The notes: a model not told the origin generated them from the sequence alone. Positions 1 through 62,215 are shown, counted from the stretch's first letter. The stretch: 62,814 nucleotides of DNA from a virus (IMGVR_UViG_3300048592_000297:1-62814); one strand, 5' to 3'. Translations and numbers: made by a program.

Positions 1-326
1 CGATCCCGCTGACTGGTGCCGGTCTGAAACGCAGTAAAGTCATTTGTAGCACGGTTGAAAAGGACGTTGATGCCCTTCTTCACCTTGGCCTCAACATCTA
101 CCGTAACCACTGGTACAGTTTTGTAGCCAATGTCTACGGCCCGTGCTAGCCGCTGGTGCCCTGACAATACAAGCCCGCTTCGGTCACAAAAGATCGGCTG
201 CACAAATCCGAGCTTCAGCAGCGACAGGCGTAGAAGCATAGTGCGTACAGCATCGGCCTTTCGTGGGTTGGATGCGTCTGGTCGAACGTCAGTTACACCG
301 ACCTTATCAATCGCAAACGTCACCAT
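1..326 (-). CDS. ParB/Sulfiredoxin-like N-terminal domain protein (partial, runs off window; absent from ORF track)
   Basis: Manual translation from ATG at 326: MVTFAIDKVGVTDVRPDASNPRKAD...SLLKLGFVQPIFCDRSGLVLSGHQRLARA. Shows the ParB-N motifs NPR, GF.QPI and GHQR. Confidence 0.8.
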   Translation of the reverse strand, partial: MVTFAIDKVGVTDVRPDASNPRKADAVRTMLLRLSLLKLGFVQPIFCDRSGLVLSGHQRLARAVDIGYKTVPVVTVDVEAKVKKGINVLFNRATNDFTAFQTGTSQRD

Positions 327-1035
327 CTCCGGTTCCTTCGGTAGCTATTCCGACTTCCGCCAGCGCCTCGTTATCCAGCCCAAGCCTACGAAACAGCTCC
401 TCTTGGATATTCGCATTGACGTAGTTGAACTGCACCTTAAGCGCAGTCGCCCACAGGTTGTACGTTTCTACTGGAAGATGAAGCACAAACTCGCCGATTA
501 CAATTCGCGTTCGAAGCGGTCCAAGTCCGTTGTTTGTGCTGGTAGCTGCCTGCACTGTGTCCTCGCTTGGCGTGGACGATAGGCAATCGTCTGCAACCAC
601 TTGCGTAAGGCAATCTACCTCCTCGCGAGAAAACCCCAGATACGTGAAATCGATTACGCCCACCAGCTCCGACAACTCGGCCGACAGCAAGTCTGTGTTC
701 CACGTAGCGATCTCGGCGAGCTTGTTGTCAACGATTCGAAACGCCCGAATCTGGTCCTCGGACAGATGGTGTACACGAACTACTGGAACGCTGCTGTAAC
801 CAAGAGCTTTCGCTGCCTTGACCCGTGTATGTCCGGCAACAAGCACATTATCAGCATCGACAAGGCACGGAATGATGAATCCAAACTCACGAATCGAGTT
901 CGCCACATACTCGACTGCAGCATCGTTGTCGCGGGGGTTGTTCTCGTATTCGTGAATGTCCTCAATTTCGAGGTATTCCAGCTCAAGCTGCTGCTGGGCG
1001 ACGGCAGCGCGACTACGTCTAGTGCGGGCGCTCAT
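307..1035 (-). CDS. ParB-like N-terminal domain protein
   Basis: YENNPRDND..VANSIREFGFIIPCLVD..LVAGHTRVKAA..AFRIVDNK is a classic phage ParB-N motif set. Start placed at MSART (ORF track gives 1047). Confidence 0.85.
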   Translation of the reverse strand: MSARTRRSRAAVAQQQLELEYLEIEDIHEYENNPRDNDAAVEYVANSIREFGFIIPCLVDADNVLVAGHTRVKAAKALGYSSVPVVRVHHLSEDQIRAFRIVDNKLAEIATWNTDLLSAELSELVGVIDFTYLGFSREEVDCLTQVVADDCLSSTPSEDTVQAATSTNNGLGPLRTRIVIGEFVLHLPVETYNLWATALKVQFNYVNANIQEELFRRLGLDNEALAEVGIATEGTGDGDVCD

Positions 1036-1066
1036 AGCCTGCCTCACTCACGCGGTGCATCATTCG

Positions 1067-1096
1067 AAAAAAAACGGCGGGGTTGCCCCCGCCGTG
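1067..1096 (-). terminator. Rho-independent terminator
   Basis: On - strand ACGGCGGGG-GCAA-CCCCGCCGT followed by a T run, just after the 1117 stop. Confidence 0.9.
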
Positions 1097-1116
1097 CTCC
1101 CCTCTAGCAGATTCGA

Positions 1117-2331
1117 CTACTCCTCCTCGGCGCCATCGACTGCCTTCTGCGCTTCCTGCCGCGCCTTCGCCCGCTGACGAACCAGACGACGAACGTCCTT
1201 CTGTTCGAGGAAGGATTCCGCCCAATCGAGAACGATACGCTCGAACGTCTCAGCGGGGGGCAGGTCAAGCGTCTCTTGCGCAATTGCGAGAATTGCACTT
1301 ACGGTATCGGACGCCGCCTCCGGCAGCGCGAACGTGAACCGCTCCATCTTGACAACGTCACGCTTGCTACCGGGCGTCGCCGTCTGGTTGCGGGTGGCGC
1401 TGATGGTCTCCTTCAGCTCGGTAACGGACTGCGTCGAAGCCGCTTCCATCAGGCCCGCCGGGTCGGCGTCGTCGAACACACGCTGAATGAGCGCAGCCTT
1501 CGAGTAGCCGATGGTGGCCAGATCGTCGGCTCCGAGACCGTGGCGTCGGAACTGGGTGTAGATCGCGAGCAGATCCATCGCCTTGCGATAACCGACGTTC
1601 ATGTCCTCGGTAAATAGACGAAACCCTCCCAACCCCTCGTAGCGCGAGTCCAGATAGCGATAGAGCTTGCGAACCCGCACCGCGTAGAGCGCGGCCCCCA
1701 ACTGCCACTCGGCGTTGATACTGGCCGTGGACAGTTCCGCAATCAACTCGCGGACATCGTCACTCTCCTCGACCATCTGCCGGACTTCAGGATCTTCCTC
1801 GTCTTCGGTGAGGACGATCATGTTGCCGAGTTCAGGGTCGGCTTCTTCTTCGTCTTCTTCGGCTTCTTCAGCCTCTTCTTCGTCTTCTTCGTCGTCTTCT
1901 TCTTCGACCGGCGCGACAGTCGCCTTGGCCTTGGCGGCAGGCTTGGCCTTGGCGGCAGGCTTGGCGGACTGCTTGCTCTTGTTCCCGGCGGAAGGCAGCG
2001 CAATCTCGTCTTCGAACACTTCGATGTCGAACACGTCGCCGTCTTCGCCCGTGACCTTGAGCTTGTACACCGTCTCGTCGTTGTCCTCGTCGGGCGGGAT
2101 CACGGCCGATACCGGGTACTGCTGGCCAGCTACCAGCATCTCCGCGCCATCGGGCAGGCTCTCAGGATCGGAAAATCCGACGAACTGGACGACCTGCTTC
2201 AGTTCGTACCGTGCTTCAGCGGCCTTGACGGCCGGCTTGGCAGCGGCCTTGACGGCCGGCTTGGCAGCGGCCTTGACGGCCGGCTTGACGGCAGGCTTGT
2301 TAACCTGCGGTTTCGTTACTGACTTGACCAT
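1117..2331 (-). CDS. Putative abundant DNA-binding/nucleoid protein (KPAVKAAA histone-H1-like repeats, acidic tract, helical HTH-like C-domain)
   Basis: 404 aa with AKPA repeats, a D/E tract and GC3-rich codons; flanked by its own promoter and terminator. Function is inferred. Confidence 0.6.
   Translation of the reverse strand: MVKSVTKPQVNKPAVKPAVKAAAKPAVKAAAKPAVKAAEARYELKQVVQFVGFSDPESLPDGAEMLVAGQQYPVSAVIPPDEDNDETVYKLKVTGEDGDVFDIEVFEDEIALPSAGNKSKQSAKPAAKAKPAAKAKATVAPVEEEDDEEDEEEAEEAEEDEEEADPELGNMIVLTEDEEDPEVRQMVEESDDVRELIAELSTASINAEWQLGAALYAVRVRKLYRYLDSRYEGLGGFRLFTEDMNVGYRKAMDLLAIYTQFRRHGLGADDLATIGYSKAALIQRVFDDADPAGLMEAASTQSVTELKETISATRNQTATPGSKRDVVKMERFTFALPEAASDTVSAILAIAQETLDLPPAETFERIVLDWAESFLEQKDVRRLVRQRAKARQEAQKAVDGAEEE
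2221..2297. repeat. 24-bp tandem repeat encoding KPAVKAAA
   Basis: GGCCTTGACGGCCGGCTTGGCAGC x2 plus partial copies. Confidence 0.85.
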
Positions 2332-2384
2332 TGTGCTTACTCCATGCGTGGATAAACGTACCGTATACCATTGCTGGCGTGACC

Positions 2385-3005: not shown

Positions 3006-3952
3006 CAGCCAGCAACCTCCGGCGCAAGTCGGAAGCAGGCAACCGCTGCTGGGCAGCTCTGAGCACGCTTCTGGCTTCGAGACGAACACAGCGTGCGGGG
3101 CGGCGGGGCACTAGACGTGCCTGTTCGATAGTCGTTAAGCTGCCGTGCTTCAATCAGGTAGCTGGTGGCTCGTTCGTAGTTCGAGGGCACGTCAACCACA
3201 AACTCTTTGAACGGAGTGCCAATCTTCCAATCTTTGCACACATACAAAATCGACACCTTGTCGTACAACGATATAGTGCGCTTACGCTCGAACAAGCGCC
3301 AATACAAGAGAGTTTGCACAATATGGTCCGGCTGCGGACGGTTAAGTTCTTCAAACTGCGGACGCGCCATGCTCTTAACCTCGACAATCAACAACGCATT
3401 CATGTAGAGCGCCAGATCGATATGCCCCACAATCTTATCGGTATCGTCAATGACCTGTAGCTCGGCATGGTTCAGTAAAGGCGATTGGCACTTATCACAC
3501 CGAACGCCGCGCTCGGCGGCTCTGCGAGCGTTCGCCAACGTCATCGGCTCAGAAAGCTGTCTATCGTCCTCCGAACAAACACACGTCCAGCGGGCATACA
3601 CATCGTCTCGCCTGCTCATGACCTTGTTGACTACAAACCGACCTATCGACTCGCCTATAGCGAATGTAATGCCTTGACTATCCCACAGCGTCTGTGGCGC
3701 TACAGGAATAGCAAGACGCTCCGTCAGCGCGATTTGCCGAACACATCTCGATACTAGATCAGAAACATGAATGTGCCCGCTTTCGCGCATGTGTCTTAAG
3801 ACGGGGCCGGTGTTTAAAGACGGCAGAATCGCTGTAGGACGATTGTATCCTCGTATGTGCGCCTCTGCAGCAGCGGGGGTCGGCGGCGTCTCGACTTCCC
3901 GCCTACGCCTCGTAGAACCGCTGCCGTAGAGTATATCCGCAGAACGACGCAT
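3005..3952 (-). CDS. Cas4-like PD-(D/E)XK exonuclease
   Basis: HVSDL..RC, GHID..IVEVKS, Q..LY and a C-terminal Cys cluster (C..C.....C); GGAG RBS before MRRSAD. Confidence 0.8.
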   Translation of the reverse strand: MRRSADILYGSGSTRRRREVETPPTPAAAEAHIRGYNRPTAILPSLNTGPVLRHMRESGHIHVSDLVSRCVRQIALTERLAIPVAPQTLWDSQGITFAIGESIGRFVVNKVMSRRDDVYARWTCVCSEDDRQLSEPMTLANARRAAERGVRCDKCQSPLLNHAELQVIDDTDKIVGHIDLALYMNALLIVEVKSMARPQFEELNRPQPDHIVQTLLYWRLFERKRTISLYDKVSILYVCKDWKIGTPFKEFVVDVPSNYERATSYLIEARQLNDYRTGTSSAPPPRTLCSSRSQKRAQSCPAAVACFRLAPEVAG

Positions 3953-3968: not shown

Positions 3969-4346
3969 TTATGGCTTTCGCAGGTTATCTGCGTCCAGTG
4001 CATAGACAGGAACGACAGCGATTTCCTTAAACGGATTGCCCGCGCTGTCTAAGAACTCTATTACAATCGCTGGTAGTTCCCTGTTTGCAAGCGCAGCGTT
4101 TTCAATCTTCTCTAGCATCGCTAACGTAACCGAGAACGAACGGTGTGTAGTGCATTTAGCCTCAACGCGATAGAGACCGTTGTACCGAATCACATCGCCC
4201 TTGTGGAGCTTGTTACCACTACCGGGCGTGAGCTTGCCATCTCCGCGTCGTGCAAGGTACTTCTCCTGCGCTGCCGCTCGCTTGTGTGCAGCAGACCGAC
4301 GGTCGTTAGCGCCAGACATCCTAGCCAGTTTACTCGCTCGGGTCAT
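3969..4346 (-). CDS. Hjc-type PD-(D/E)XK resolvase/endonuclease
   Basis: QEKYLA..TPGSG..KGDV..VEAKCT motif pattern. Confidence 0.7.
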   Translation of the reverse strand: MTRASKLARMSGANDRRSAAHKRAAAQEKYLARRGDGKLTPGSGNKLHKGDVIRYNGLYRVEAKCTTHRSFSVTLAMLEKIENAALANRELPAIVIEFLDSAGNPFKEIAVVPVYALDADNLRKP

Positions 4347-5466
4347 CTTCGTGCACCGTAGTGTCGAACCGCAACAGGAACTTTCGAGGCATCCCCATGT
4401 GCTGGGCTTGCGCCCGAAGCAAGTAGTTGCTCAGGGCACGATAAACTCCACGATTCTGGTTCAAGAAGACGGCCGCTTTAGCGGGGCTTTCAAGCGAATA
4501 CTCCTGACCATCAAACTCCAGCTTCCAGTATTTCCCACCGCCCGTGAATACCCCAAACTTCTTGGCATACGCCAAGACAGTTGGCGAATCGTCCACGTCA
4601 CCGTCGTGGAGACCAGAATCGAGGTCATCCATACGGCACAACTTGAACTCGCCCTGCCTCGGGCCGTTGTTAACCTTGTTCTTGGTAATTGCAAACTCAT
4701 GCACGTTGTGGGTTACAACATCCACATCGTACTGGTCTTTGCCTACTGTCTCCTTGTTGAGCATCCGCCACACTAGACTAGGGAAGTGCTCTACCGCACG
4801 CCCGCCGGGCGCTATGCGATTGTCACCATACATCTGTCCGATCCGAGTGCGAAATTGATTGATGTACAAAACGGCAGGCTCGTGACCTCGCAGCCTTTCG
4901 TGCACCATCGAGCCAGTAATCTTGCGGCACAACCGACCAATCAATCTCGACTGCAGTCCAATATGTGCATCCTCAGCGCTACTGTCTGCTTCTGCAAACG
5001 GTAGCAAAGTCGCCAACGAGTCTATAACGAGGATGGATACCTGCTCGGTCGAGACGAACAGATCCGCCATATCCACCGCATGTTCGCCAATCTGAGATTC
5101 CACGACTTGGATTCGCTCAAGATCGACGCCCAACTTTTTGGCCCACACCGTGTCAAAGGCTTTCTCGCAGTCCATGAATACTGCAACACTGTCTGGATAT
5201 TTGCGCTGAGCGTTAGCAATTATCTTGCAGGCAATGGTAGTCTTGCCAGCATGTTTCTCGCCAACGATCATGCTCTGCCGCCCCTGCGGTATCCCGCCGA
5301 GCGTGCACAGATCCAGAATAAACGATCCAGTGCTTATGCGCTGTGGTGCATTGATATGTGTTCCCTTGTTGGATACAGGACCGTACTTCTTCGTAATGCT
5401 GGTGAGGGTTTCATCTAGTTCAGTCTGTTGAGAATCCGCAGGCCGCTTCAATCGTACCCTAGTCAT
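4330..5466 (-). CDS. recA: RecA-family recombinase
   Basis: ISTGSFILDLCTLGGIPQGR, Walker A GEKHAGKTT, LVIDSLA, INQFR..IG, PGGRA. Confidence 0.95.
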   Translation of the reverse strand: MTRVRLKRPADSQQTELDETLTSITKKYGPVSNKGTHINAPQRISTGSFILDLCTLGGIPQGRQSMIVGEKHAGKTTIACKIIANAQRKYPDSVAVFMDCEKAFDTVWAKKLGVDLERIQVVESQIGEHAVDMADLFVSTEQVSILVIDSLATLLPFAEADSSAEDAHIGLQSRLIGRLCRKITGSMVHERLRGHEPAVLYINQFRTRIGQMYGDNRIAPGGRAVEHFPSLVWRMLNKETVGKDQYDVDVVTHNVHEFAITKNKVNNGPRQGEFKLCRMDDLDSGLHDGDVDDSPTVLAYAKKFGVFTGGGKYWKLEFDGQEYSLESPAKAAVFLNQNRGVYRALSNYLLRAQAQHMGMPRKFLLRFDTTVHEDDPSE

Positions 5467-5816
5467 AGGACGCCCGCCTCTCGGTCTTTCAGATAGGCGT
5501 CTAGTTCTTCGACAAGACGCCGCTGAACCAGCCCAGCAATTTCCTCGGAACGCTGCTGAAGCTGCTCCTTGTAACAGGGTATGCGCACCTCTACATGCAC
5601 CCTCAGAGATTCGTAGTTGCCCAGATTACGGGTAACGGACGCCCCGACTTCGACATAGGCAGGATCGACCAAAAACTCCTCTACTTGCAGCGGTACGGTC
5701 TGCTCGCGGTCGTCAACAACTTCCTTGACGACGACATTCTTCACAGCAACGGTCATCTGGCCTTGCACCTTCACAACGTCAGAACGGCGCTTTCGTACAG
5801 AGGTCTGAGTAGTCAT
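5463..5816 (-). CDS. Conserved phage hypothetical protein
   Basis: TRNLGNYESLRV segment; ATGA-coupled to recA. Confidence 0.7.
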   Translation of the reverse strand: MTTQTSVRKRRSDVVKVQGQMTVAVKNVVVKEVVDDREQTVPLQVEEFLVDPAYVEVGASVTRNLGNYESLRVHVEVRIPCYKEQLQQRSEEIAGLVQRRLVEELDAYLKDREAGVL

Positions 5817-6054: not shown

Positions 6055-6602
6055 GGATAGTTGGCTCGCACACGTTCAATTACGTCAGCCATCACTTCTG
6101 CATAGATTCGTGCAGAAGGGTGAAAATAGTCATAGCCGCCGATGTGCAAACTCACTAGCGTAGCCGCAATCACATCCACCTCCTCTCGCAAGTATCTGCG
6201 GTGGTTGTACTTTGTGTCGCGATACACAGGCGCGGGAACGAGCCGTTTCGTCACCCAAGACTTCACAGTAACCAGCGTCTTTCCAGTAGCTAGTGCAAGC
6301 TCCTGCATGGAGTACGTCTCGGCCGTGAACAGCGTACCGCTAGTGGGCGACACAATTTCGCGCAAAACTCCCGCAACCAAAGGCCCGCCGGCTAGAGCGC
6401 TCGGTTCTGTTATCGTCTTGGTCTTCAGGTACGCCCTCCGCGCAGCGTTTTTCGCGCGTTGCCTGTAGTCGGCATCGCTACGATATTTCTCTCGTGCTCG
6501 TTGCCGCTTATTCGATGCGCTTTGAGCGCTTCCACGCGGCGTTTTACGTCGCGCAGAAGACGCGCCGGTTCTTGCTTCTGAAGTCCTCGCTCCAAGTCCC
6601 AT
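6051..6602 (-). CDS. MerR/excisionase-like HTH DNA-binding protein
   Basis: YSMQELALATGKTLVTVKSWVTKRLVPAP..RRYLREEV; basic N-terminus overlaps the helicase gene. Confidence 0.7.
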   Translation of the reverse strand: MGLGARTSEARTGASSARRKTPRGSAQSASNKRQRAREKYRSDADYRQRAKNAARRAYLKTKTITEPSALAGGPLVAGVLREIVSPTSGTLFTAETYSMQELALATGKTLVTVKSWVTKRLVPAPVYRDTKYNHRRYLREEVDVIAATLVSLHIGGYDYFHPSARIYAEVMADVIERVRANYP

Positions 6603-8033: not shown

Positions 8034-9116
8034 CTACCTCCTACGAGTCGTCGGGCGCGTAACAGGTCGCACAGCGGGCCGTTCAGACGGGTCACGCGTT
8101 CGTGCGGCAGGCGCCGCCGTCCGTTGCGCAGGCTCGGCGGCTCGTGCGGTCGGACGGCCCGTAACAGGTCGGCTGGACGCTGCCGGACGGCCTCGCGATT
8201 CCGACCGACGAGAAGACGCAGACGGTTCCGGCGCATCGACTTCGTCGTCCTCCTCTATCGGCGCATCCCACGGCAGATCGTCCTCTTCCGCCGAAAACTC
8301 ACCGTTGAGCACCGAATCGGTTTCGGCATCCGATCCGGGGAGCGGGGCAGCGGATTGCTGTCGCCCAAACGGCCTGCCAGCAACTGCCGCCGACGGCCTG
8401 TAAGGCACTCCCGCCGCCTTCGCAACCTCCTCCTCCGACATCTCCGGGTACAACTCCATGTAATTGCATGGTTCCGAGCAGTCCTCCTCGACAGTCTGGT
8501 TGTTCTGCCCCATTCGAGTGCGAACGTAGATCGACAGATCCGGTGCCCACTCGATGAACTGCAAATCTGCCCCACTTCGAGGCTCCTTGTCAGTGTCGCG
8601 ATACAGCTCAACTACTGCACCGCGAATCCCGTCCTCGCCATCGCTGTGCTGCTCCTCAAACCGGAGCCATTTGTTCTGCATACCGGACTTGACGATCAGC
8701 AACTTGCGCGACCATTCCACGTAAGGCTTGGTTGCATCCTTCGGCTGGTAACCCTCCGGGTCGATGACGGTCAGGTACATCGCATAGTACGGGTTCTTGC
8801 CGGAGGCGCAGATGGGGCAACCTTCGATGTGGTTCGGGCACGGCAGGAACGTGTCTTCCCGCCCAGTCCTCGGATTCATCAGAGAATGCTCATACCTGTA
8901 GAACTCGATGTGCCGGTCCAGTATGATAACCCGACGCTGGCTGTTGGGAGCCATCCAGAACCTGAACGGCTCATTCACACGCGAACGCGCGGCGGCACGT
9001 CGTGCCGCAATCCGTTCCTGCTCAAGCCGCGCTTCTTCTCGCCCAGCGGAGCCAAAGAAGCTGGCTCTCGATCCCGCAGTCTGTTGAGGCGTGCGGTTCC
9101 TATCTCTCGTACTCAT
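8034..9116 (-). CDS. Putative single-stranded DNA-binding protein (gp32-like, Zn-binding)
   Basis: RFW..RRVIILD..EH..C..CPIC, acidic then R/P-rich tail; located in the replication cluster. Confidence 0.65.
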   Translation of the reverse strand: MSTRDRNRTPQQTAGSRASFFGSAGREEARLEQERIAARRAAARSRVNEPFRFWMAPNSQRRVIILDRHIEFYRYEHSLMNPRTGREDTFLPCPNHIEGCPICASGKNPYYAMYLTVIDPEGYQPKDATKPYVEWSRKLLIVKSGMQNKWLRFEEQHSDGEDGIRGAVVELYRDTDKEPRSGADLQFIEWAPDLSIYVRTRMGQNNQTVEEDCSEPCNYMELYPEMSEEEVAKAAGVPYRPSAAVAGRPFGRQQSAAPLPGSDAETDSVLNGEFSAEEDDLPWDAPIEEDDEVDAPEPSASSRRSESRGRPAASSRPVTGRPTARAAEPAQRTAAPAARTRDPSERPAVRPVTRPTTRRR

Positions 9117-10453: not shown

Positions 10454-10936
10454 CTACGCCTGCATGTCTTTGGCTTTCTTACCCGGCACTCGCGGCTTCT
10501 GCTGGAGAAGCGGCAGAAACCTGTATTGCGGTTCCTTCGGGGTGCCCGGGACAGAAGTCGTGACCGCTGCGAAATCTTTGGACGACAGCTCGGCCCTCAA
10601 CGCCGCTATGCTAACGTCTGCAATTTCACAGAATCGATGCTCCCCGACCAAAGCGACAACTGCCGCCTTGTCTATTTGCGTGGACGAGTTCGAACGAGGC
10701 GTGTACACCTCGTGTGTACCGTACTGCTCGACAGCAAACGTCGTTTGCCCAAGCGCAGCAAGTGCTGCTTCCGCTTCCGTGTGAAGCGATGCCAGCTCGG
10801 CCTTCATTCTAGCGATGGCCCGCTCCTTATAGGAGATCAACCGGCCGAGGCTCCTGAGCCGGTCAGTGGTAGTTGCTGCGTGCGCGTCGCGTGCTGGCGT
10901 GCGCCGCGTAATCTGCAGTTTTCTTGGTTCAGCCAT
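10454..10936 (-). CDS. Hypothetical coiled-coil protein
   Basis: 160 aa, strong AAGGAG RBS, directly downstream of a promoter. Confidence 0.7.
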   Translation of the reverse strand: MAEPRKLQITRRTPARDAHAATTTDRLRSLGRLISYKERAIARMKAELASLHTEAEAALAALGQTTFAVEQYGTHEVYTPRSNSSTQIDKAAVVALVGEHRFCEIADVSIAALRAELSSKDFAAVTTSVPGTPKEPQYRFLPLLQQKPRVPGKKAKDMQA

Positions 10937-18275: not shown

Positions 18276-18304
18276 ATTATAACCGCAAAACCTTTCTATG
18301 TCAA
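18276..18304 (-). promoter_or_regulatory. Perfect-consensus sigma70 promoter
   Basis: TTGACA-17bp-TATAAT on - strand, upstream of DUF1257. Confidence 0.9.
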
Positions 18305-47521: not shown

Positions 47522-47971
47522 CTACGGTTTCGCAGCGCGAGCGCTGTTTCTCTGCTTTGCCAACGCCTGTTGCTGCTTTACGCTGTCGGCAGTTTCCTGT
47601 CCGGCGATCCCCATGTTGATCGCTTCCTCACGCGCCGCTGCCGCCAGTGCCGAATCTGAAACAAGCGCTACATTACGCACGTCCTTGTCCTTCCAGTACC
47701 TCACCCTTTCCTCAAGGGTTGCAACTCGAAAAACAGGCACATCCTCGTTAATGCGAGGATCGAGCACTCTCGTGCGCAGAAGCCGTTGTGCCATCAACTC
47801 ACCGACACGAATCGTCATGCCCCTGGTGATGACCTTGCCATCGTTCGCGTAAGCGACAACCAGCCTTCGGCATGGTGACCCGTCCATCGTCAGATAACTA
47901 GCGCCATCCGTGTCCGGTGGCATATTAGTCATTGAGTCGTCGCTTACAAATCCAGACCGTCTGCGAGCCAT
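47522..47971 (-). CDS. Hypothetical protein after the capsid gene
   Basis: 149 aa, GAGG RBS. Confidence 0.65.
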   Translation of the reverse strand: MARRRSGFVSDDSMTNMPPDTDGASYLTMDGSPCRRLVVAYANDGKVITRGMTIRVGELMAQRLLRTRVLDPRINEDVPVFRVATLEERVRYWKDKDVRNVALVSDSALAAAAREEAINMGIAGQETADSVKQQQALAKQRNSARAAKP

Positions 47972-54042: not shown

Positions 54043-54749
54043 TACGTCTCCTTGAACGAGTTCATCAGCGTGTAGCTCGAACCTCCATCCAGAGTAATGA
54101 GTGTGGCAATGGTTCGCTTGCTAGCGTTCAGGTTCAGGTTCAGCGCGCCCTTTGTGACGGAGCCGGGCATCGTGACAGTCCAGCCTCCGGTGCCGTCTTG
54201 GTCGAATATCAGTGTCATATGGGCGGCGACGCCAGACGAAGGCGGGTTGCTGAAAGCGATTGTGGTGTCTGTCGTGAGTGTGATGTGCGCCACATTACCG
54301 GCTTCGAAGTTGACTGTAGTAGTGCCGCCAGAGTCAGTCGGCGTAGAGCGTGTTTCGGCGTAGTCCTTCAAAACCGCCCGCTTTACCGTCTGGTCTGCAG
54401 CATTCATCTCGCCAGTAAGCGCAGCGTTAGCGGCTTGCATAAACCCCGAAAGGGCGTCAGCCGTAGCGCGATGCTGCAAGGTAGTTGACGACGACCACGA
54501 TTGTGCGGTTGTGTTGTCTTGGGCTCGAACGACGGTGATTACATCGCCAGTAACGTCCGTGACCTTTACTACCTCCCACGAGGTTTCATTGTCGGGGAAT
54601 CCGACTGCCGCCGTCATGCGAATGTAATCCCCGCCCGACAGAGTTGGGAACAAATCCCCGTGCCCGGTACTCAACGTCCACTCTACATCGTCAGTGTCTA
54701 CACCGGACGCTAGGGTTACAGCGAAGTTGTTCTTGAATATCTCAGCCAT
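54042..54749 (-). CDS. Putative fibre/appendage adaptor protein
   Basis: KNNF..TLASG..EVVKVT..VVRAQDNT; C-domain LKDYAE..QDGTGGWTVT. Confidence 0.65.
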   Translation of the reverse strand: MAEIFKNNFAVTLASGVDTDDVEWTLSTGHGDLFPTLSGGDYIRMTAAVGFPDNETSWEVVKVTDVTGDVITVVRAQDNTTAQSWSSSTTLQHRATADALSGFMQAANAALTGEMNAADQTVKRAVLKDYAETRSTPTDSGGTTTVNFEAGNVAHITLTTDTTIAFSNPPSSGVAAHMTLIFDQDGTGGWTVTMPGSVTKGALNLNLNASKRTIATLITLDGGSSYTLMNSFKET

Positions 54750-56496
54750 TGAGCGATCTCCTACGTCGTGGTCGGCCTTTCGTCAGATTGCGTCTCGCGC
54801 CTACGTCGCCAACTCCTTTCCCATCTTCCACTAGGTCTATATCTGGAGTTCGCACAGCGGATTCCTCGCGCGGCTCGCTCGGCTGATCCAGCCGTCCGCC
54901 CGCATCAATAGCAGTCTTACGCACACCAATCTGGATTGGAAGATCCATCCAGTCCATCCACCCGTCCTGCCCCTTTTCAGGGTAGAGCGGAATCGATACC
55001 TGCATCTGTTCATTGATGATCGAAATTGCAGAACGAGGGGTAAGAGCACCCATCGCATTCGCTGCAGTAAGTGCATTTACAACTTCGCCCGGATTCGTCA
55101 GCGGCGGTCCTTTCGACTCCAGCTTCACGGTGCGAAGCCCTAGCCCTAGCTCGCTGTTGACGAACGAGTTGTTCAGCCAGTCGTCATGCGCCATGCGCTG
55201 CGGCTGAAAGACTTGCATCTCTGCCACAAAAGTGGAGACATTCGCAGTTGCAAACGAAACGTCTTGACTCTGCCCGAGCAGAACAGGCGGCAATCGAAAG
55301 CATGAGCGCACCTTGTTCTGATTGGCGACATCGTACACGCTGAATAGCCCGTCACTTGGCCGCGAATCGGCAAGCCGCTCAATTGAGATGTGGGCGACCC
55401 CGTGGTCTTCGATACCGCCTGTCTCAGGGATTGCCTCAAGTAGCATAAGCTGGTTTTGCTTACCGAGCCCGCCTTCTTCAGCTACACGTCTGATTTCGTT
55501 GAAGGAATCAGCCGTGAGCCGTCCGCCAGAAATCGTGATGATTGCGGCAGGCACCATGTTGTCTTCGAAGTATCGAAGGTTGCATTCTTCAGCTTCTGCC
55601 GATCCGAGAATGATCTTGAACATGCTGCACCAGCGCGGGATTCCATACACGTCTTCCGAGTCCTGCTTATGGTGCATCAATTCGGTCGCACGATACTTGT
55701 CCGGTATCTTCCCGCCTGCCTTGCTTTGGTACTCGCCAGTGCGATAGTCCATTGTGCGGGGGTCGCCGTACTCCTTGAAGTACACAACCGTTGCGCCGAT
55801 CCGTTGCACATACTTTCGAAATCGCTTGAGTTCTGCGACAGAAACTCTGCTACCGCCCCTGAGCACAGTTTTCGTTACCCGTACCGGCGTCTTCTGGCGC
55901 GACAAAATACGCACGGTCGATACCGGAACGTGGCGCAGCAGAGTTGGACGGCCGGTAATGTTTCGAATAACCTCAAGATAGCGCAGTCCGTACTTCTCGA
56001 ACTCGTATATCTGCGCCCGGTTTTCCTGCACTAGCGAACGGTCGGTGTTCGCATGTTTGATCCACGACATCAGCGTGGCGCGTTCACGAGGGTCAATATC
56101 CACATCCTCGTCGTATGGCACGACTCGATAGCCAAACCCAGCTATATTCGTGACCATAGCATCCACGCATTGTCGCAAAACGTTGCTCTTGCTAAAGAGC
56201 CCGTCCAGAATCCCGAACTGATATACAGGACGCATCTCGACATTGTTGCCGAGAAGTTGTGATAAGCCAGAAGTTCCGTCCAGCATCTCCTGCCTAGACT
56301 GGTCGGCTCGTTTGATGTCCCCAAGCGTCCTACTACCGTCGCCATCAGCGCGGCGAAAGACAACAGCTCTGCCGCCAGACGGCGACAAGCTCATAACCCC
56401 AGTCGCGGCTGGGCGTAGATTGCTAACGTTTGCAACTCCCTCATTCGGGACTCCAACCATCAGATTAGAACGACTACGTCTGCGGGGCTTCATCAA
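54742..56496 (-). CDS. Portal protein (PBSX XkdE-like)
   Basis: YLEVIRN.TG..YFKEYGDPR..YGIPRW..YFEDN..FRLPP.LG. Confidence 0.9.
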   Translation of the reverse strand: MMKPRRRSRSNLMVGVPNEGVANVSNLRPAATGVMSLSPSGGRAVVFRRADGDGSRTLGDIKRADQSRQEMLDGTSGLSQLLGNNVEMRPVYQFGILDGLFSKSNVLRQCVDAMVTNIAGFGYRVVPYDEDVDIDPRERATLMSWIKHANTDRSLVQENRAQIYEFEKYGLRYLEVIRNITGRPTLLRHVPVSTVRILSRQKTPVRVTKTVLRGGSRVSVAELKRFRKYVQRIGATVVYFKEYGDPRTMDYRTGEYQSKAGGKIPDKYRATELMHHKQDSEDVYGIPRWCSMFKIILGSAEAEECNLRYFEDNMVPAAIITISGGRLTADSFNEIRRVAEEGGLGKQNQLMLLEAIPETGGIEDHGVAHISIERLADSRPSDGLFSVYDVANQNKVRSCFRLPPVLLGQSQDVSFATANVSTFVAEMQVFQPQRMAHDDWLNNSFVNSELGLGLRTVKLESKGPPLTNPGEVVNALTAANAMGALTPRSAISIINEQMQVSIPLYPEKGQDGWMDWMDLPIQIGVRKTAIDAGGRLDQPSEPREESAVRTPDIDLVEDGKGVGDVGARRNLTKGRPRRRRSLNG

Positions 56497-57247: not shown

Positions 57248-57324
57248 AAAGCATTCCCCTTAACGCAACTATCTCGGTGCGTATATTATCGATGTGCAGT
57301 TCTGCGTTGTAAAGCTCAAGCAAC

Positions 57325-57684: not shown

Positions 57685-58160
57685 TCGCCCAGCCTCGAAC
57701 CGCGATAGGTAAGCGCACGTATTCGGTGCGTTGCCCATGCAGGCAACGCATTACAACGCCAAAGACACACTGGGTGTGTATAGTCGGAATAGCAGGCCGT
57801 AACCCACCATTGCCCTTTCGTCCTGTATGCGCGAACAAGAAGTATGAGTGCCAGCGAACCGCGCGGGAGCCCATGCACCAGTGACGTTGCCACTTTCGTC
57901 ACAAATCGCTCCGAAAACGCGATACCAGTGAAGTATGTTTCGTAGCGCTGCTTGACGGCAGTCTGCTGCGCAACCACCGCAACTCGGCTAATCTGAAACG
58001 CGCTGCTCTTGGCAGGCATCTTGACCGACTTCAGAGCATAGGCTGCAACTTCTTTAGCCCGCGTCCCAGCGTCGCGTATTGACGTAACGTATTCCGAGAA
58101 GTCGGCAAAGATAACCTCACCGTGATCGGCGTCTGCGCTGAATGTTACCGGCTCCAGCAT
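57681..58160 (-). CDS. Hypothetical protein
   Basis: Start MLEPV after GAAGGGG. Confidence 0.5.
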   Translation of the reverse strand: MLEPVTFSADADHGEVIFADFSEYVTSIRDAGTRAKEVAAYALKSVKMPAKSSAFQISRVAVVAQQTAVKQRYETYFTGIAFSERFVTKVATSLVHGLPRGSLALILLVRAYRTKGQWWVTACYSDYTHPVCLWRCNALPAWATHRIRALTYRGSRLGE

Positions 58161-58365
58161 ACAAGATTTCCCCTTCTGTCTGAACCTGAAGCACCTGTAT
58201 GGTGCTTTTCTCATTCCACCAAGCACGCTCGTCGGCTGGTCGATACTTGCTAACAATAGCAATCGCCGCCTGTTTAGTTGGCGCATCGCAGGCAATCTGT
58301 ACGTGTACGCGCTCAGTCTTCCCTTTGCTAACAGTTACAACGCAACAAAGTGCAAAATACTTCAT
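58117..58365 (-). CDS. Small hypothetical protein
   Basis: 82 aa, ends QRRRRSR. Confidence 0.5.
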   Translation of the reverse strand: MKYFALCCVVTVSKGKTERVHVQIACDAPTKQAAIAIVSKYRPADERAWWNEKSTIQVLQVQTEGEILYAGAGNIQRRRRSR

Positions 58366-60672: not shown

Positions 60673-60704
60673 TGCGGCGCTTCCGTTAGGTTGGAGGTTT
60701 CATT

Positions 60705-60962
60705 CTACCCCTCCACTCTCCGGGCCACAATTCCCTTCCACGCATCAACTAACGGCCGAACAGCATCTTGTGCAGCCCGCAAGTTAAGGTGCGGATCGTC
60801 ATGGTCGCGACACTCAACGCAGATTCGTGACTGGATATGGAACACTTGAACCCCGACAAAATCCCACGTGTACGGCGAAACAGCACTGCCATCGCGTTTG
60901 GACACCAACCGAACAATGAACTCGGACGACTCAAGTTTCTTGGTTATGTCAACTGCAGGCAT
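60705..60962 (-). CDS. Hypothetical protein
   Basis: 85 aa, AGGAGG RBS. Confidence 0.6.
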   Translation of the reverse strand: MPAVDITKKLESSEFIVRLVSKRDGSAVSPYTWDFVGVQVFHIQSRICVECRDHDDPHLNLRAAQDAVRPLVDAWKGIVARRVEG

Positions 60963-61363
60963 GTAAGGCCCTCCTTCTCGATGATAGCCGTAAGGCTCTC
61001 CACGATGGAATCCAGAATACGATCCTGAACACGCCGGTCATCTACCGAGCGCCATACACAAATCGCTCGAATCACTGCAGCTTCCTGCGCACGTATGTGG
61101 TTGAGGGCGATGTAGCTGCCAACGGCATGAGCGCTGTCAACATGGCGCACGTTGCGAGGACTCCACAATCGGAGTAACTCAACAGTGTGGGCGGCTTTTC
61201 GTAAATCCTCGATGCCGTTCTTCGTGCGCCAGCGCGACACATACCGAACGACGCTGCCCTCTAAGGCAGAAAGACAAATATCCTCAGAGAAATGACCCGG
61301 CTGGTACGCCATCGTCTTGTAGTGGCCCCCGCCAACCTGCACACGATCTGGTGACGTGTCCAT
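60944..61363 (-). CDS. DUF3310 (SaV-like) protein
   Basis: QVGGGHYK..QP..EGSVVRYVSRWRTKNGIEDLRKA. Confidence 0.85.
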   Translation of the reverse strand: MDTSPDRVQVGGGHYKTMAYQPGHFSEDICLSALEGSVVRYVSRWRTKNGIEDLRKAAHTVELLRLWSPRNVRHVDSAHAVGSYIALNHIRAQEAAVIRAICVWRSVDDRRVQDRILDSIVESLTAIIEKEGLTCLQLT

Positions 61364-61833
61364 CAGTTGACTCCAGTAGAGCCGAACCCGCCAGTTCCGC
61401 GTGCGCTTTCGTCCAGCGTTTCGACGTGAGTGAACACCGCCTTGCAACTTTCGACAAGCAGAGCTTGTGCGATGCGCATGCCCGGAGTGATGACCGAACT
61501 TGCCCCCGGCGCGACACAATGCACAATCACGCCGATCTCGCCTCGGTAATCCGAATCGATGATACCGGGCGCATTCACCACTGTCAGCCCGTCATTCAGC
61601 GCAAGACCTGAACGCGGGCAAACCAAGAGCACCATGCCCGGCGGCAACTGTACAAAGACTCCAGTAGGGATGAGCATGGGCGAGTTGGCAACGCGCGTCG
61701 GGTACTTGACCGCTGCTCGCAGATCAAAAGCTCCAGCCTCGTAAGTTGCATACGTTGGCAATTGCGGAGATCCATCCGGGTACGTCCATTGCGTAGCGAT
61801 TTTCACTTCTGTCAGCCTTCGGCCTGAACTCAT
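61363..61833 (-). CDS. dut: dUTPase
   Basis: AGAFDL, PRSGLA, GIIDSDYRGEI, RIAQ, RGTGGFGSTG. Confidence 0.97.
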   Translation of the reverse strand: MSSGRRLTEVKIATQWTYPDGSPQLPTYATYEAGAFDLRAAVKYPTRVANSPMLIPTGVFVQLPPGMVLLVCPRSGLALNDGLTVVNAPGIIDSDYRGEIGVIVHCVAPGASSVITPGMRIAQALLVESCKAVFTHVETLDESARGTGGFGSTGVN

Positions 61834-61834
61834 C

Positions 61835-62215
61835 TCAACCCCTCCTTCTTCGTCGTTGTGCGCCCGAGCGCGGAAACCTGTCCACTACCCCCGCCTTTGA
61901 CGGATGCGGCCCCTCCCCGGATGGAATCCTACCATAACGGAAGTTCACTTCAATCGCAAACGCATCCGCCACGGCGTGAGCAATCGCCATCCGTAGTTCG
62001 GAATGTATCCCCCGGTTGTTCGATCCGTCGCGCGAAGCACAATCCGCGTACCATTGCCGGTGCGTGAACTCATACACTAGATCGATCTTGAACGCCTCAA
62101 TCACTGCGCCAAGATCATCAGCATCTACGCCAAACATGGCGGCGGCTGCACGAAACGCCCCCAGCACGACGTGAGGGGCAGGCTCTTCGTGATGCAAGTT
62201 AGGTTTTCGTGTCAT
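61835..62215 (-). CDS. Hypothetical protein
   Basis: Start MTRKP after GAGGGGCTGGAG; ends QRRRRRG. Confidence 0.55.
   Translation of the reverse strand: MTRKPNLHHEEPAPHVVLGAFRAAAAMFGVDADDLGAVIEAFKIDLVYEFTHRQWYADCASRDGSNNRGIHSELRMAIAHAVADAFAIEVNFRYGRIPSGEGPHPSKAGVVDRFPRSGAQRRRRRG

Follow-up and report, generated by a model that had tools for sequence, protein, structure and literature searches.

Charged terminal tails on DNA-handling and head proteins of a phage lineage, putative nucleic-acid-binding arms

In DNA-binding proteins, disordered tails with a positive charge serve as "arms" for search and affinity. The arginine-rich motifs of lambda and P22 N and of HIV Tat and Rev depend on Arg and each recognise a single, specific RNA hairpin. 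Acidic C-terminal SSB tips, as in E. coli SSB and T7 gp2.5, recruit partners electrostatically. According to PMC2582624, which cites Xiao 2005, the N-terminus of gp10, the connector protein of phi29, is rich in Arg/Lys and binds pRNA as well as unrelated RNA and DNA. PMC11177979 describes a variable disordered N-terminal region of the coronavirus nucleocapsid that retains function.

Here we examined a viral DNA window (the whole stretch of 62,814 nucleotides analysed, IMGVR_UViG_3300048592_000297:1-62814). The completeness of this record is only about 66%. In this window the tagged ORFs are all on the minus strand. An earlier note had described Arg-rich tags at the ends of many unrelated proteins here and inferred that they act as one shared targeting code. 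Like the arms of DNA-binding proteins, these tails flank folded nucleic-acid-binding domains and conserve charge rather than sequence, but in the window phage many different enzymes of one module are tailed. With the lambda/P22 N and Tat/Rev motifs they share an Arg-rich stretch of 10-20 residues at the N-terminus of a viral protein, but Lys freely replaces Arg in the tails of this lineage. Electrostatic recruitment by tails within a replication/recombination machinery, as by the E. coli SSB and T7 gp2.5 tips, is putative in the window, and the polarity is opposite: the SSB-like protein ends in Arg and the would-be partners carry tails. Like gp10 as described in PMC2582624, the window portal has a short basic N-terminal peptide outside the ordered core; unlike gp10, it belongs to family PF04860, and binding by its tail is only putative.

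Tails outside the cores of particular protein families

The strings quoted in the earlier note were all recovered from minus-strand ORF translations, but the two in ORF 15487-16629 are not terminal, since PRRPRLRLRK is internal (residue 139 of 380) and 19 residues separate the end of PRRQPVRRK from the C-terminus. The features of the replication genes and of the AAA+ ATPase region are as follows.

1006..1035 (-): ParB-like protein (gene 307-1035), N-terminal basic tail MSARTRRSRA; translation
1117..2331 (-): 404-aa protein, KPAV/KPAA repeats, extended poly-Glu/Asp stretch and conserved C-terminal domain; charge map
3896..3952 (-): Cas4-like exonuclease (gene 3005-3952), N-terminal tail MRRS...STRRRRE; translation
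4275..4346 (-): resolvase-like protein (gene 3969-4346), N-terminal basic region; translation
5440..5466 (-): RecA-like recombinase (gene 4330-5466), N-terminal tail MTRVRLKRP; translation
5778..5816 (-): replication-module protein (gene 5463-5816), N-terminal tail MTTQTSVRKRRSD; translation
6428..6457 (-): ResIII/DEAD helicase (gene 6425-8032), C-terminal basic end; translation
8037..8216 (-): SSB-like protein, 60-residue Arg-rich C-terminal extension ending PTTRRR
9090..9116 (-): SSB-like protein (gene 8034-9116), N-terminal tail MSTRDRNRT; translation
10889..10936 (-): protein 10454-10936, N-terminal tail MAEPRKLQITRRTPAR; translation
18304..18339 (-): paralog 18301-19029, C-terminal basic end KITIRKRNPAPR; translation
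19029..19064 (-): paralog 19026-19838, C-terminal basic end RRKLLINKRGRQ; partly the next gene's Shine-Dalgarno site
19847..19951 (-): classic-clade AAA+ ATPase (gene 19844-21604), Arg-rich C-terminal tail; translation

The tails sit outside the Pfam, PHROG and BLAST cores. Pfam ParB_N begins at residue 18 of the ParB-like protein, beyond its tail, the PHROG exonuclease match at residue 53 of the Cas4-like protein and the phrog_2002 match at residue 15 of the resolvase-like protein. Pfam RecA begins at residue 17 of the RecA-like recombinase, whose AlphaFold2 model has a pLDDT below 50 for residues 1-9 (protein mean, 87). On the AAA+ ATPase, Pfam AAA + lid end at residue 514, and tblastn alignments with phage orthologs end at residue 545 of 586. 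The 404-aa protein, a candidate acidic partner in the earlier note, matches phrog_17202 over residues 116-356. The two paralogs share 27% identity over 157 aa (E=1.6e-11).

Conservation was assessed in IMG/VR loci, where 22% of all N-termini and 10% of interior 15-mers have a net charge of at least +3. At least +3 was found in residues 2-16 of 18/19 (95%) ParB-like orthologs, at the N-terminus of 52% of 27 resolvase-like orthologs and in the last 15 residues of 41% of 39 ResIII/DEAD helicase orthologs. Basic N-termini occur in 68% of 28 Cas4-like orthologs, 47% of 30 orthologs of gene 5463-5816 and 58% of 24 SSB-like orthologs, and basic C-ends in 67% of the latter and in 80% for the 404-aa protein (orthologs in 20 loci). 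Among named relatives, the orthologs of gene 5463-5816 have a basic N-terminus in 4/4, with K in Ares1, and those of the AAA+ ATPase a basic C-tail in 5/5 (mean net +6.2). In the SSB-like protein an acidic tract (EEDDLPWD...EEDDEVD) precedes the extension; in distant orthologs the C-terminus is an acidic tip instead (...DDNIPF in RHph_I4).

The RecA clade has at least four K/R in residues 2-16 in 76% of 119 homologs (45-64% identity). Head-module and other features are listed here.

47954..47971 (-): head-module protein 47522-47971, N-terminus MARRRS; translation
50653..50706 (-): 558-aa protein encoded between the prohead protease and major capsid protein genes, N-terminal tail; translation
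54745..54780 (-): portal, C-terminal Arg run KGRPRRRRSLNG; partly the next gene's Shine-Dalgarno site
56464..56493 (-): portal (gene 54742-56493), N-terminal tail MKPRRRSRSN; translation
58120..58140 (-): weakly supported ORF 58117-58365, C-terminus QRRRRSR; translation
61838..61858 (-): ORF 61835-62215, C-terminus QRRRRRG; largely the next gene's Shine-Dalgarno site

For the portal clade, the first 15 residues carry at least +3 in 74% of 119 homologs, and the basic block can be aligned, followed by an invariant RADxSRQ motif at residues 62-68. The public portal call (514 aa) omits both block and motif. The homologs rule out wrong start calls as the origin of the RecA and portal tails, both of which the public calls truncate. 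The Cas4-like gene has AGGAG 5 nt upstream of its start; gene 10454-10936, for which a single ortholog was found, has an AAGGAG RBS and starts at the first start in its ORF. Pfam and PHROG scans found no family match for protein 47522-47971. The ortholog of the 558-aa protein in PA_L9 begins MSKNQRIRRST; since no Pfam or PHROG family matched this protein, its "scaffold-like" label reflects gene order only.

Lys and Arg are interchangeable in these tails. The RecA homolog N-tails (n=119) hold 287 R and 224 K, orthologous tails are Lys-rich at matching places in JP1, RcMenchie and Ares1, and R/(R+K) is 0.63 in the window N-tails versus 0.65 in interiors. The homologs thus point to charge, not Arg itself, as the selected property, and to selection that maintains the tails across hundreds of relatives, conserving charge but not sequence.

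Enrichment of terminal arginine and its generic share

Composition was tested on 72 window proteins of at least 60 aa. The Arg fraction was 0.079 in residues 2-21 and 0.106 in the last 20 residues, compared to 0.064 in interiors. Random interior windows (20,000 draws) gave a total of 97.7 +/- 8.4 Arg. The N-terminal total was 114 (p=0.032), and the C-terminal total of 153 was reached by none of the draws, the highest being 137. With an R-tag defined as at least 4 Arg within 9 residues, at most 25 residues from a protein end, the window has 4 N-terminal and 7 C-terminal tags versus 1.15 expected per terminus from interiors, or 11 tags in 148 termini against about 2.4.

Ten unrelated phages (GC 0.50-0.65) and seven related phages were run through the identical pipeline, giving 18 sets with the window. 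The unrelated phages had 32 tags in 1410 termini, so that window tags came at 3.5 times their rate (Fisher odds ratio 3.46, p=0.0015). Arg-rich terminal runs on unrelated proteins, as the earlier note described them, are therefore confirmed, both against interiors and against GC-similar phages. The window's C-terminal Arg ratio (1.65) was the highest of the 18 sets. Related phages had 69 tags in 1672 termini; the odds ratio was 1.87 for the window versus the related phages (p=0.089) and 1.85 for the related versus the unrelated phages (p=0.004). Beyond the generic share, the tails are a property of the phage lineage, not of the window phage alone. The lineage carries about 1.8 times more tags than the unrelated phages, among them three controls with their own replication modules (PB1, phiW-14, Corndog). 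This excess counts against the reading of the tails as electrostatic arms and is accounted for by none of the readings considered here.

A substantial share of the signal at C-termini is generic or nucleotide-derived. Third-position A in the window rises to 0.208 in codons 2-11 and 0.196 in the last 10 codons, from 0.150, and is in excess at both gene ends in 6/6 phage sets examined, where A-enrichment affects all three codon positions. The share of AGR (AGA/AGG) among Arg codons is raised at both gene ends in 10/10 sets, related and unrelated; these two codons account for roughly 45% of the surplus Arg over the final 10 codons and, over codons 2-11, for roughly two thirds. Among 705 proteins of the unrelated phages, C-terminal R-tags number 22 versus 8.6 expected, 2.6 times the interior rate. 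In PMC7246954 (Weber et al. 2020), Lys is 2.32x and Arg 1.76x enriched at the last position across 1,582 bacterial genomes, with a K/R gradient that reaches position -20 and enriched AGA, AGG and CGA. The window and most controls share the gradient of about 20 residues and the AGA/AGG over-use with the bias as described there; the window's dense runs of 4-6 Arg and its N-terminal tails do not belong to that bias.

Ribosome binding sites add to this, because the AGG AGG of a Shine-Dalgarno site reads as Arg-Arg in the frame of the upstream gene. Three of the seven C-terminal R-tags (61835, portal and SSB-like) are the next gene's site read as codons, and in these tags and the 19026 end the AGG/AGA codons sit 4-12 nt before the next start. 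ORF 61835-62215 ends CGA CGA AGA AGG AGG GGT TGA, and the dUTPase gene (AAGGAG RBS) starts 1 nt after its stop. The last SSB-like codons, CGT AGG AGG, supply the AGGAGG site for the helicase start, 1 nt past the stop. At the portal C-end, CGA CGT AGG AGA lie 8 nt before the following ATG, the genes overlapping by 8 nt. Gene 19026-19838 ends in AAG AGG GGG AGG CAA, and the next start overlaps it by 4 nt.

Another possible explanation is that the tails lack any function at the protein level, being a by-product of RNA-level selection for unstructured, A/purine-rich regions of translation initiation and for Shine-Dalgarno sites located within upstream genes, of generic terminus biases and of some wrong gene or start calls. 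The codon biases at both gene ends, the tags encoded by ribosome binding sites and the universal C-terminal bias described in PMC7246954 all agree with it, as does the portal C-terminal run, a basic C-end being present in only 7.6% of 119 homologs. Two ORFs listed in the earlier note are also doubtful as genes: ORF 56900-57247, with 116 codons, has a coding score of 3.3 (range for called genes, 0.08-0.3 per codon), so weak that it may not be a gene, and ORF 58117-58365 scores 6.4 and lacks an RBS. We nevertheless consider this explanation quite unlikely. CGN, not AGR, encodes most Arg within tags, and the Arg codons of the AAA+ ATPase tail are CGN and no part of a Shine-Dalgarno site. N-terminal R-tags are not enriched in the unrelated phages (10 versus 8.6 expected among 705 proteins). 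The N-tail charge of RecA and portal is conserved, tails follow protein family rather than expression or gene junctions, and the major capsid and tail tube proteins, abundant virion components, have none.

One shared signal or independent arms

Tails concentrate on DNA-handling and head proteins. In the window, 13/25 replication-module proteins have a basic terminus compared to 5/27 lysis and tail proteins (p=0.019), which bears out the earlier remark that tail and fibre proteins mostly lack tags. This placement is compatible with DNA contact. Basic tails were found in 0% of primase, 10% of DnaB and 8% of RuvC orthologs in IMG/VR loci, so the core replisome is untagged. With DNA polymerase (N-end) included, only 0-20% of orthologs are tailed; these four proteins act on DNA, and DNA contact alone is therefore not predictive. 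Tails also occur on proteins with no known DNA link (the AAA+ ATPase, its two paralogous neighbours, 47522 and the scaffold-like protein), an observation that goes against the arm reading.

The code proposed in the earlier note would have many tails read by one partner, gathering proteins into a replication/recombination compartment or condensate. Candidate partners would be the AAA+ ATPase or one of two acidic stretches, the poly-acidic one in the 404-aa protein and the one in the SSB-like protein. Two conserved neighbours with large acidic tracts fit this proposal, as do the lineage excess over GC-similar phages and the RecA tails, whose mean net charge is +3.2 where the record has a full-length AAA+ ortholog (n=9) versus +0.84 where it does not (n=25; p=0.003). 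However, the latter association, the one link to the ATPase, is confounded by phylogeny, because the records form a single clade split (RecA identity at least 37% in one group and at most 40% in the other). The 404-aa ortholog was undetected in JP1 and HJ05, both of which bear tails. Tail strength is not significantly correlated in 14/15 family pairs (33 non-redundant loci); the sole correlated pair, RecA/SSB-like (rho 0.56, p=0.016), is lost after correction. Since Lys and Arg interchange, the Arg share is that of the background, tails are bound to families, core replisome proteins are untagged and families are uncorrelated, a single code is unsupported and we regard it as unlikely.

What speaks for a common partner is that individual phages have their own flavour of tail. 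Ser follows terminal Arg runs 10 times in the window versus 2.5 expected, 8 versus 3.8 in PA_L9 and 31 versus 15.3 in 16 IMG/VR relatives; in unrelated phages, Ser is outside the five most enriched residues at this place. In JP1, 11/128 proteins start M[AP]I[KRQ], and in Ares1, 8/114 start with the related M[APS][ILVFM][KRQ]. Such flavours are the pattern predicted by co-evolution with one phage-specific partner and count against arms. Among 238 tails of RecA and portal homologs, S/T is not enriched after basic pairs (28% versus 35.5% shuffled), which counts against a shared signal.

The Ser could instead mark modification sites, with RRxS-like ends phosphorylated, for example, by a basophilic Ser/Thr kinase that would switch the tail charge. 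"RRS" occurs 10 times in the terminal 25-residue stretches of the window versus 2.3 when shuffled (reached in 0/3000 shuffles) and 4 times in the interiors, though these are 4.4 times larger; PA_L9 termini have 8 versus 3.4 (p=0.015). We think this very unlikely. The motif was chosen post hoc from the same data, it is not enriched in HJ05 (1 versus 1.7 expected), RHph_I4 (0 versus 2.1) or the RecA and portal homolog tails, and in this incomplete record none of the 74 window proteins matched a kinase-like Pfam domain, nor did any of the 21 uncharacterized ones when re-scanned at E<=0.5.

We favor, at a probability of roughly 55%, the reading that the tails are independent, disordered, electrostatic nucleic-acid-binding arms. 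Their presence, enrichment, position outside the folds, charge-only conservation, Lys/Arg interchange and family specificity are direct observations, from which we infer DNA as binding partner and the benefit of the arms. The tags fall into three layers. A generic layer comes from Lys/Arg-rich C-termini found everywhere together with gene ends that, as RNA, are A/purine-rich in packed phage operons. A by-product layer arises where the next start lies within a few bases of the stop and AGGAGG is read as Arg-Arg. The third layer, selected across the lineage, comprises short intrinsically disordered basic extensions on particular protein families: the ParB-like, Cas4-like, resolvase-like, RecA and SSB-like proteins and the portal N-end, and at C-ends the ResIII/DEAD helicase and the AAA+ ATPase. 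These arms would hold their proteins non-specifically on phage DNA or another polyanion (RNA or an acidic protein tract), which would raise the local protein concentration at the substrate, and the portal arm would touch nucleic acid or the packaging machinery in the manner of the phi29 connector.

Gene set and terminal arginine runs

The window spans an entire IMG/VR virus record of 62,814 bases. The record is linear and approximately 66% complete (CheckV), with a GC content of 0.549 and all of its genes on the minus strand. No tRNA genes were found in the window, and a megablast of the window against GenBank gave no near-identical phage. The top-listed matches of the major capsid protein, at 46-49% identity, come from siphophages of Pseudomonas, Vibrio, Rhizobium, and Aeromonas with lengths of 79-108 kb. 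The module layout was derived from Pfam and PHROGs.

Module layout of the window
307-21,604, minus strand: replication and recombination module (Pfam, PHROGs), with ParB-like protein, 404-aa repeat protein, RuvC, Cas4-like exonuclease, resolvase-like protein, RecA, ResIII helicase, SSB-like protein, primase, UDG-PolA polymerase, DnaB, and classic-clade AAA+ ATPase
22,020-47,512, minus strand: lysis and tail module (Pfam, PHROGs)
47,522-56,851, minus strand: head module, with major capsid protein, XkdF-type protease, and PF04860 portal
From the head module to 62,814, minus strand: small unknown genes

No terminase was found among the window genes using Pfam and PHROGs, and this gene presumably sits past the end of the record. 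The two longest stretches lacking a confident gene, 21605-22019 (415 nt) and 56852-57324 (473 nt), may be regulatory regions; the doubtful ORF 56900-57247 lies within the second. In the family A DNA polymerase (10999-13635, minus strand), a domain of the uracil-DNA-glycosylase superfamily (PF03167, residues 30-157) lies at the N-terminus, before the 3'-5' exonuclease and polymerase domains.

Genes were called by codon log-likelihood trained on long ORFs, a Shine-Dalgarno (SD) score, and a start-codon weight. A two-strand version of the caller, which gave 73-75 genes in the window, was applied identically to all controls. Over the first 15 kb of the related phage PA_L9, most calls agreed with the deposited annotation, while some starts differed and a few genes were missed or added. 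ORFs lacking a name are designated by their lower coordinate.

The earlier note proposed that short Arg-rich tags are appended to many unrelated proteins of this phage. All of the strings it quoted were found in the window translations, although not every one marks the end of a secure gene. Of the two strings in 15487-16629, one is internal and one only near-terminal. The string in 56900-57247 is present, but the gene itself is doubtful (coding score 3.3 over 116 codons), and the ORF carrying the string at 58117-58365 is likewise weakly supported. The two neighbors described as paralogs, 18301-19029 and 19026-19838, are indeed related (27% identity, E=1.6e-11).

Across 72 window proteins, the Arg content is 7.9% in residues 2-21, 10.6% in the last 20 residues, and 6.4% in interiors. 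The N-terminal excess is modest (114 Arg compared to 97.7 +/- 8.4 in 20,000 interior-window draws, p=0.032), and the C-terminal excess is strong (153 observed, when the highest of 20,000 interior draws was 137). Dense Arg runs were found at four N-termini and seven C-termini of these proteins, with 1.15 expected per terminus. The tags were said to be missing from most tail proteins, and this holds: a basic terminus is present in 5 of 27 lysis and tail proteins compared to 13 of 25 replication-module proteins (p=0.019).

The comparison set beforehand as decisive was with GC-matched phages. Ten unrelated controls with a GC content of 0.50-0.65 (D3, Mu, 16-3, Xp10, KP34, lambda, PB1, the first 100 kb of phiW-14, Corndog, and LUZ24) and seven relatives (PA_L9, RHph_I4, JP1, HJ05, RcMenchie, DLP5, and Ares1) were passed through the identical pipeline. 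An R-tag was defined as at least four Arg in nine residues within 25 residues of a protein end.

R-tags in the window, related phages, and unrelated phages
Unrelated phages: 705 proteins; 10 N-terminal and 22 C-terminal; 8.6 expected per terminus
Related phages: 836 proteins; 28 N-terminal and 41 C-terminal; 12.7 expected per terminus
Window: 74 proteins; 4 N-terminal and 7 C-terminal; 1.18 expected per terminus

Terminal Arg in the window exceeds that of the controls rather than simply matching it. The odds ratio for R-tags is 3.46 for the window against unrelated phages (p=0.0015), 1.85 for related against unrelated phages (p=0.004), and 1.87 for the window against its relatives (p=0.089). 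Of the 18 sets, the window has the highest C-terminal Arg ratio, 1.65, and the second-highest N-terminal ratio, 1.22, behind RHph_I4 (1.25). The excess is therefore moderate and a property of the lineage. An excess of Arg at the C-terminus is common to most phages, since the ratio of the last 20 residues to the interior was above 1.0 in 8 of the 10 unrelated phages, the exceptions being lambda (1.00) and LUZ24 (0.85).

DLP5 is the relative with the fewest basic tails, having 5 Lys/Arg-dense termini where 3.5 were expected. It is described as a temperate phage maintained as a phagemid (PMC5834331), which fits the ParB-like genes of this lineage.

Nucleotide-level contributions at gene ends

Part of the excess is generic or arises at the nucleotide level. 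A is enriched at all three codon positions in codons 2-11 and the last 10 codons in all six sets profiled; third-position A in the window is 0.208 and 0.196 in these regions, compared to 0.150. The share of AGA and AGG among Arg codons is higher at both gene ends in 10 of the 10 sets examined. In the window, these two codons make up 2.9% of codons 2-11, 3.5% of the last 10 codons, and 1.2% inside, while CGN codons rise merely 1.15-fold and 1.5-fold at the two ends. CGA accounts for 18 of 82 Arg codons in the last 10 codons and 175 of 1094 in interiors. By window codon counts, about two thirds of the Arg excess at N-termini is due to AGA and AGG, and at C-termini about 45%.

At three of the seven C-terminal R-tags, and also at 19026, the next gene's SD sequence, 4-12 nt before its start, is read as codons.

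C-terminal ends encoded by a Shine-Dalgarno sequence
61835: AGA AGG AGG GGT then stop; next start 1 nt on
Portal: CGT AGG AGA; the following ATG overlaps by 8 nt
SSB-like protein: CGT AGG AGG then stop; next start 1 nt on
19026: AAG AGG GGG AGG; 4 nt overlap

No such reading was found at the C-termini of the AAA+ ATPase, 58117, 32069, and 1117. A DNA-level motif behind the Arg runs was rejected. In the 40 nt before the 74 minus-strand starts, the enriched words are all SD-like or contain a stop, and no 6-mers are enriched downstream of these starts.

In 1,582 bacterial genomes, Lys is 2.32-fold and Arg 1.76-fold enriched at the last C-terminal position, in a gradient that extends to position -20, and AGA, AGG, and CGA are over-used (Weber et al., PMC7246954). 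Given the universal bacterial bias described there, the C-terminal observation is in good part ordinary, and the C-terminal runs of the window belong with this bias and with SD-in-coding effects. The window C-tails show a weak preference for Arg (R/(R+K) of 0.79 compared to 0.65, p=0.011), partly because of the SD codons.

Conserved basic tails on particular protein families

Orthologs in PA_L9 with 30-45% core identity carry basic tails too, and the BLAST alignments start past them. The tails occur on ParB, the Cas4-like nuclease, RecA, 5463, the scaffold-like protein, the portal, and both ends of the SSB-like protein, and at the C-ends of the helicase and AAA+ ATPase. The pattern of tailed orthologs was confirmed across the seven relatives; in the two most distant, DLP5 and Ares1, RecA and the portal are mostly without tails.

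N-termini of portal and RecA orthologs
Portal: MSETTQRVTRRRRAS (PA_L9); MPKLAKRRRR (JP1); MARTRTLKIRPNPK (RcMenchie)
RecA: MAVQRRAPKTSRK (PA_L9); MAEAPRRRRAP (HJ05); MKKPIRKKPG (RcMenchie)

Among 119 RecA homologs with 45-64% identity, 76% have at least four Lys or Arg in residues 2-16, and 53% have a net charge of at least +3. The basic residues of these tails comprise 287 Arg and 224 Lys. Among 119 portal homologs, a net charge of at least +3 was found at the N-end in 74% and at the C-end in only 7.6%. The portal basic block aligns between homologs and is followed by an invariant R-A-D-x-S-R-Q (window residues 62-68).

Wrong start calls could have produced such tags. For RecA and the portal, the opposite was found, as wrong starts hide the tags and do not create them. 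The public RecA call (4330-5466, minus strand) begins at residue 6, giving 373 aa where homologs support 378. The public portal call (54742-56493, minus strand) begins at residue 70, giving 514 aa instead of 583 and losing both the tag and RADxSRQ. By comparison with the homologs, the longer forms are right.

The tails lie outside the folded cores, with Pfam, PHROG, and BLAST envelopes all beginning past them. RecA was modeled with AlphaFold2 (27-row alignment, mean pLDDT 87); residues 1-9 have a pLDDT below 50, and no secondary structure was predicted over residues 1-15. Several portal homologs of 881-905 residues (protein records P0147, P0149, P0153, P0157, and others) also carry PF14528, a LAGLIDADG homing-endonuclease family; in homologs of about 885 aa, this would point to an intein-like insert within the portal gene.

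An alignment-based scan of IMG/VR gave 79 loci around RecA relatives, in which 1,886 genes were called and orthologs were assigned by BLASTP. Scans of viral contigs with the portal or RecA as a single protein found no relatives, and an alignment query was needed.

Orthologs with an N-end net charge of at least +3 (residues 2-16)
ParB: 95% of 19
Cas4-like: 68% of 28
SSB-like: 58% of 24
Resolvase-like: 52% of 27
5463: 47% of 30
RecA: 28% of 78, distant ones included
Polymerase: 20% of 30
DnaB: 10% of 21
RuvC: 8% of 26
Primase: 0% of 30

The C-end is basic in 80% of orthologs of the 404-aa protein, 67% of the SSB-like protein, 41% of the helicase, and 0% of DnaB. As background, 22% of N-termini, 17% of C-termini, and 10% of interior 15-mers are basic.

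Orthologs share the net charge of the tail rather than its sequence, and Lys and Arg replace each other. The tags are thus basic tags, and the emphasis of the earlier note on Arg as such was not upheld for the N-tails, which show no Arg preference (R/(R+K) of 0.63 compared to 0.65 in interiors). They look Arg-rich because Arg is the usual basic residue of this proteome. The orthologous tails of JP1 and RcMenchie use Lys (R/(R+K) of 0.32 compared to 0.51 and 0.39 compared to 0.63, respectively). The terminal tags are real and partly ordinary; what is not ordinary is that, throughout the clade, particular protein families carry basic tails.

Proposed electrostatic arms and a possible shared partner

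The simplest account of the tails, to which we give a probability of roughly 0.55, is that they are non-specific electrostatic arms for nucleic acid. They are short, disordered, domain-flanking, conserved in charge, variable in sequence, and accepting of Lys or Arg, and their carriers include ParB, the nuclease, the resolvase-like protein, RecA, and the SSB-like protein. We infer that nucleic acid is the binding partner; such an arm would tether a phage enzyme to DNA and so raise its local concentration on the genome. As a class, the N-tails fall among the disordered, positively charged arms found on nucleic-acid-binding proteins. For the portal N-tail, there is a direct precedent in the Arg/Lys-rich N-terminus of the phi29 connector, which binds not only pRNA but other, unrelated RNA and DNA (PMC2582624, referring to Xiao 2005). 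Similarly, the disordered N-terminal region of the coronavirus nucleocapsid keeps its function despite sequence turnover (PMC11177979).

Two other classes of signal were rejected. The N-tails loosely resemble the arginine-rich motif of lambda N, which strictly needs Arg and its cognate RNA hairpin; this defining feature fails, since Lys replaces Arg in orthologs. On inspection of the tail sequences, a Tat export signal does not fit either, as the residues after the RR runs are polar or charged and lead into cytoplasmic enzyme domains.

Three observations sit poorly with electrostatic arms. The polymerase, primase, DnaB, and RuvC handle DNA yet are untagged. The AAA+ ATPase, its paralogous neighbors, 47522, and the scaffold-like protein are tagged and have no known DNA role. 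The lineage is also more tagged than PB1, phiW-14, and Corndog, which are unrelated controls with replication modules of their own. These misfits keep alive the reading that a shared partner recognizes the tails, as in the shared targeting code of the earlier note, although we regard it as unlikely. Tails are not gained or lost together across genomes: in 33 non-redundant loci, 14 of 15 family pairs showed no significant correlation of tail charge, with low power at 10-24 loci per pair. The exception, RecA with the SSB-like protein (rho 0.56, p=0.016), fails correction for 15 tests.

Further points in favor of a shared partner are flavors within single phages. The one candidate for a motif common to the tagged proteins is Ser after Arg runs, which is enriched in the window and in part of the clade but not in the tails of RecA and portal homologs. 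Ser follows terminal Arg runs in the window 10 times compared to 2.5 expected, and RRS, a motif chosen after inspection of the data, occurs 10 times in termini compared to 2.3 expected (reached in 0 of 3000 shuffles) and just 4 times in interiors. RRS occurs 8 times in PA_L9 termini (3.4 expected), once in HJ05 (1.7 expected), and not in RHph_I4, while 16 IMG/VR relatives have Ser after Arg runs 31 times compared to 15.3. In unrelated phages, Ser is outside the top five residues enriched after Arg runs. The within-phage flavors are the single lead by which the tails might gain in interest. RHph_I4 has 147 Arg-Arg dipeptides in its called proteins, 51 of them terminal and 96 interior, and Ser never comes next; about two RRS were expected in its termini alone, and the absence is possibly due to chance. 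A conserved RRxS/T kinase site was rejected, as Ser or Thr stands at +1/+2 after 136 of 484 basic pairs (28%) in 238 RecA and portal homolog tails compared to 35.5% when shuffled, and Pfam scans found no kinase domain in the window proteins.

In JP1, 11 of 128 proteins begin M[AP]I[KRQ], including the AAA+ ATPase, DNA polymerase, RecA, and RuvC. In Ares1, 8 of 114 proteins match M[APS][ILVFM][KRQ], seven of them with Lys at position 4; in each of the ten unrelated controls, 0-3 proteins match this second pattern. These starts could reflect translation context or a peptide signal.

The AAA+ ATPase also bears on a shared partner, as stronger RecA tails co-occur with it. The mean RecA tail charge is +3.2 in 9 records with a full-length AAA+ ortholog and +0.84 in 25 without (p=0.003), an association that is real but uninterpretable because it is a single split of one clade from the rest.

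The ATPase (PF00004 and AAA_lid_3) lies in a conserved cluster at 17544-21604 (minus strand) with two mutually paralogous unknown proteins, DUF2997, and a weak DUF1257 match below the cut-off (E=0.0014). Full-length orthologs of the ATPase were found in 9 of the 34 related virus records searched, and AAA-ATPases of Corndog-type mycobacteriophages match it with 27-28% identity over 65% of the query. In one complete related record, the match (G003:C1:12550-14157) crosses a single in-frame TAA; a sequencing error, gene splitting, or recoding could each account for it.

Two proteins of the window have acidic tracts. The SSB-like protein (8034-9116, minus strand; a predicted function) matches phrog_17226 and has no Pfam match. 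Its sequence includes CPNHIEGCPIC, rich in Cys, and an acidic tract with EEDDLPWD, followed by a 60-residue Arg-rich extension. Its distant orthologs have an acidic tip (DDNIPF in RHph_I4, poly-Asp in JP1 and RcMenchie) and PA_L9 has an Arg-rich end like the window, so that tip charge is reversed within one family. The 404-aa protein (1117-2331, minus strand) has N-terminal KPAV/KPAA repeats, a Glu/Asp tract of roughly 60 residues, and a conserved C-terminal domain, phrog_17202. The repeats resemble those of the histone-H1/AlgP type; in the PA_L9 and RcMenchie orthologs, Lys-Pro-Ala repeats are at the C-end instead.

A more elaborate form of a shared partner, which we consider slightly less probable still, is a loose, charge-based address system of short basic peptides in a clade of roughly 80-110-kb siphophages. 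The peptides are those at the termini of recombination and DNA-binding enzymes, the AAA+ ATPase and its neighbors, and the portal. They would dock on conserved poly-acidic tracts of the 404-aa KPAA/poly-Glu protein or the SSB-like protein or, alternatively, be handled by the clade's own AAA+ ATPase. Tagged proteins would then be gathered alongside phage DNA in a compartment for replication and recombination that lacks a membrane, and the flavors seen in the window (Arg-Arg-Ser) and in JP1 (Met-Pro-Ile-Lys) would have co-evolved with the partner. If the tails were a shared address for such a compartment in an ordinary-sized siphophage, the notion of phage-built replication compartments would reach well past jumbo phages.

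Literature searches found no account of terminal basic tails in this phage group, nor, in the papers returned, of a clade-wide basic N-tail on RecA or on the portal; the hits for the named relatives were genome announcements and surveys. The tails matter for annotation, since public calls clip those of RecA and the portal and, with the latter, an invariant motif. Both N-tails are testable in cultured relatives. If the tails are DNA-tethering arms, they would be a cheap way for phage enzymes to concentrate on the genome.
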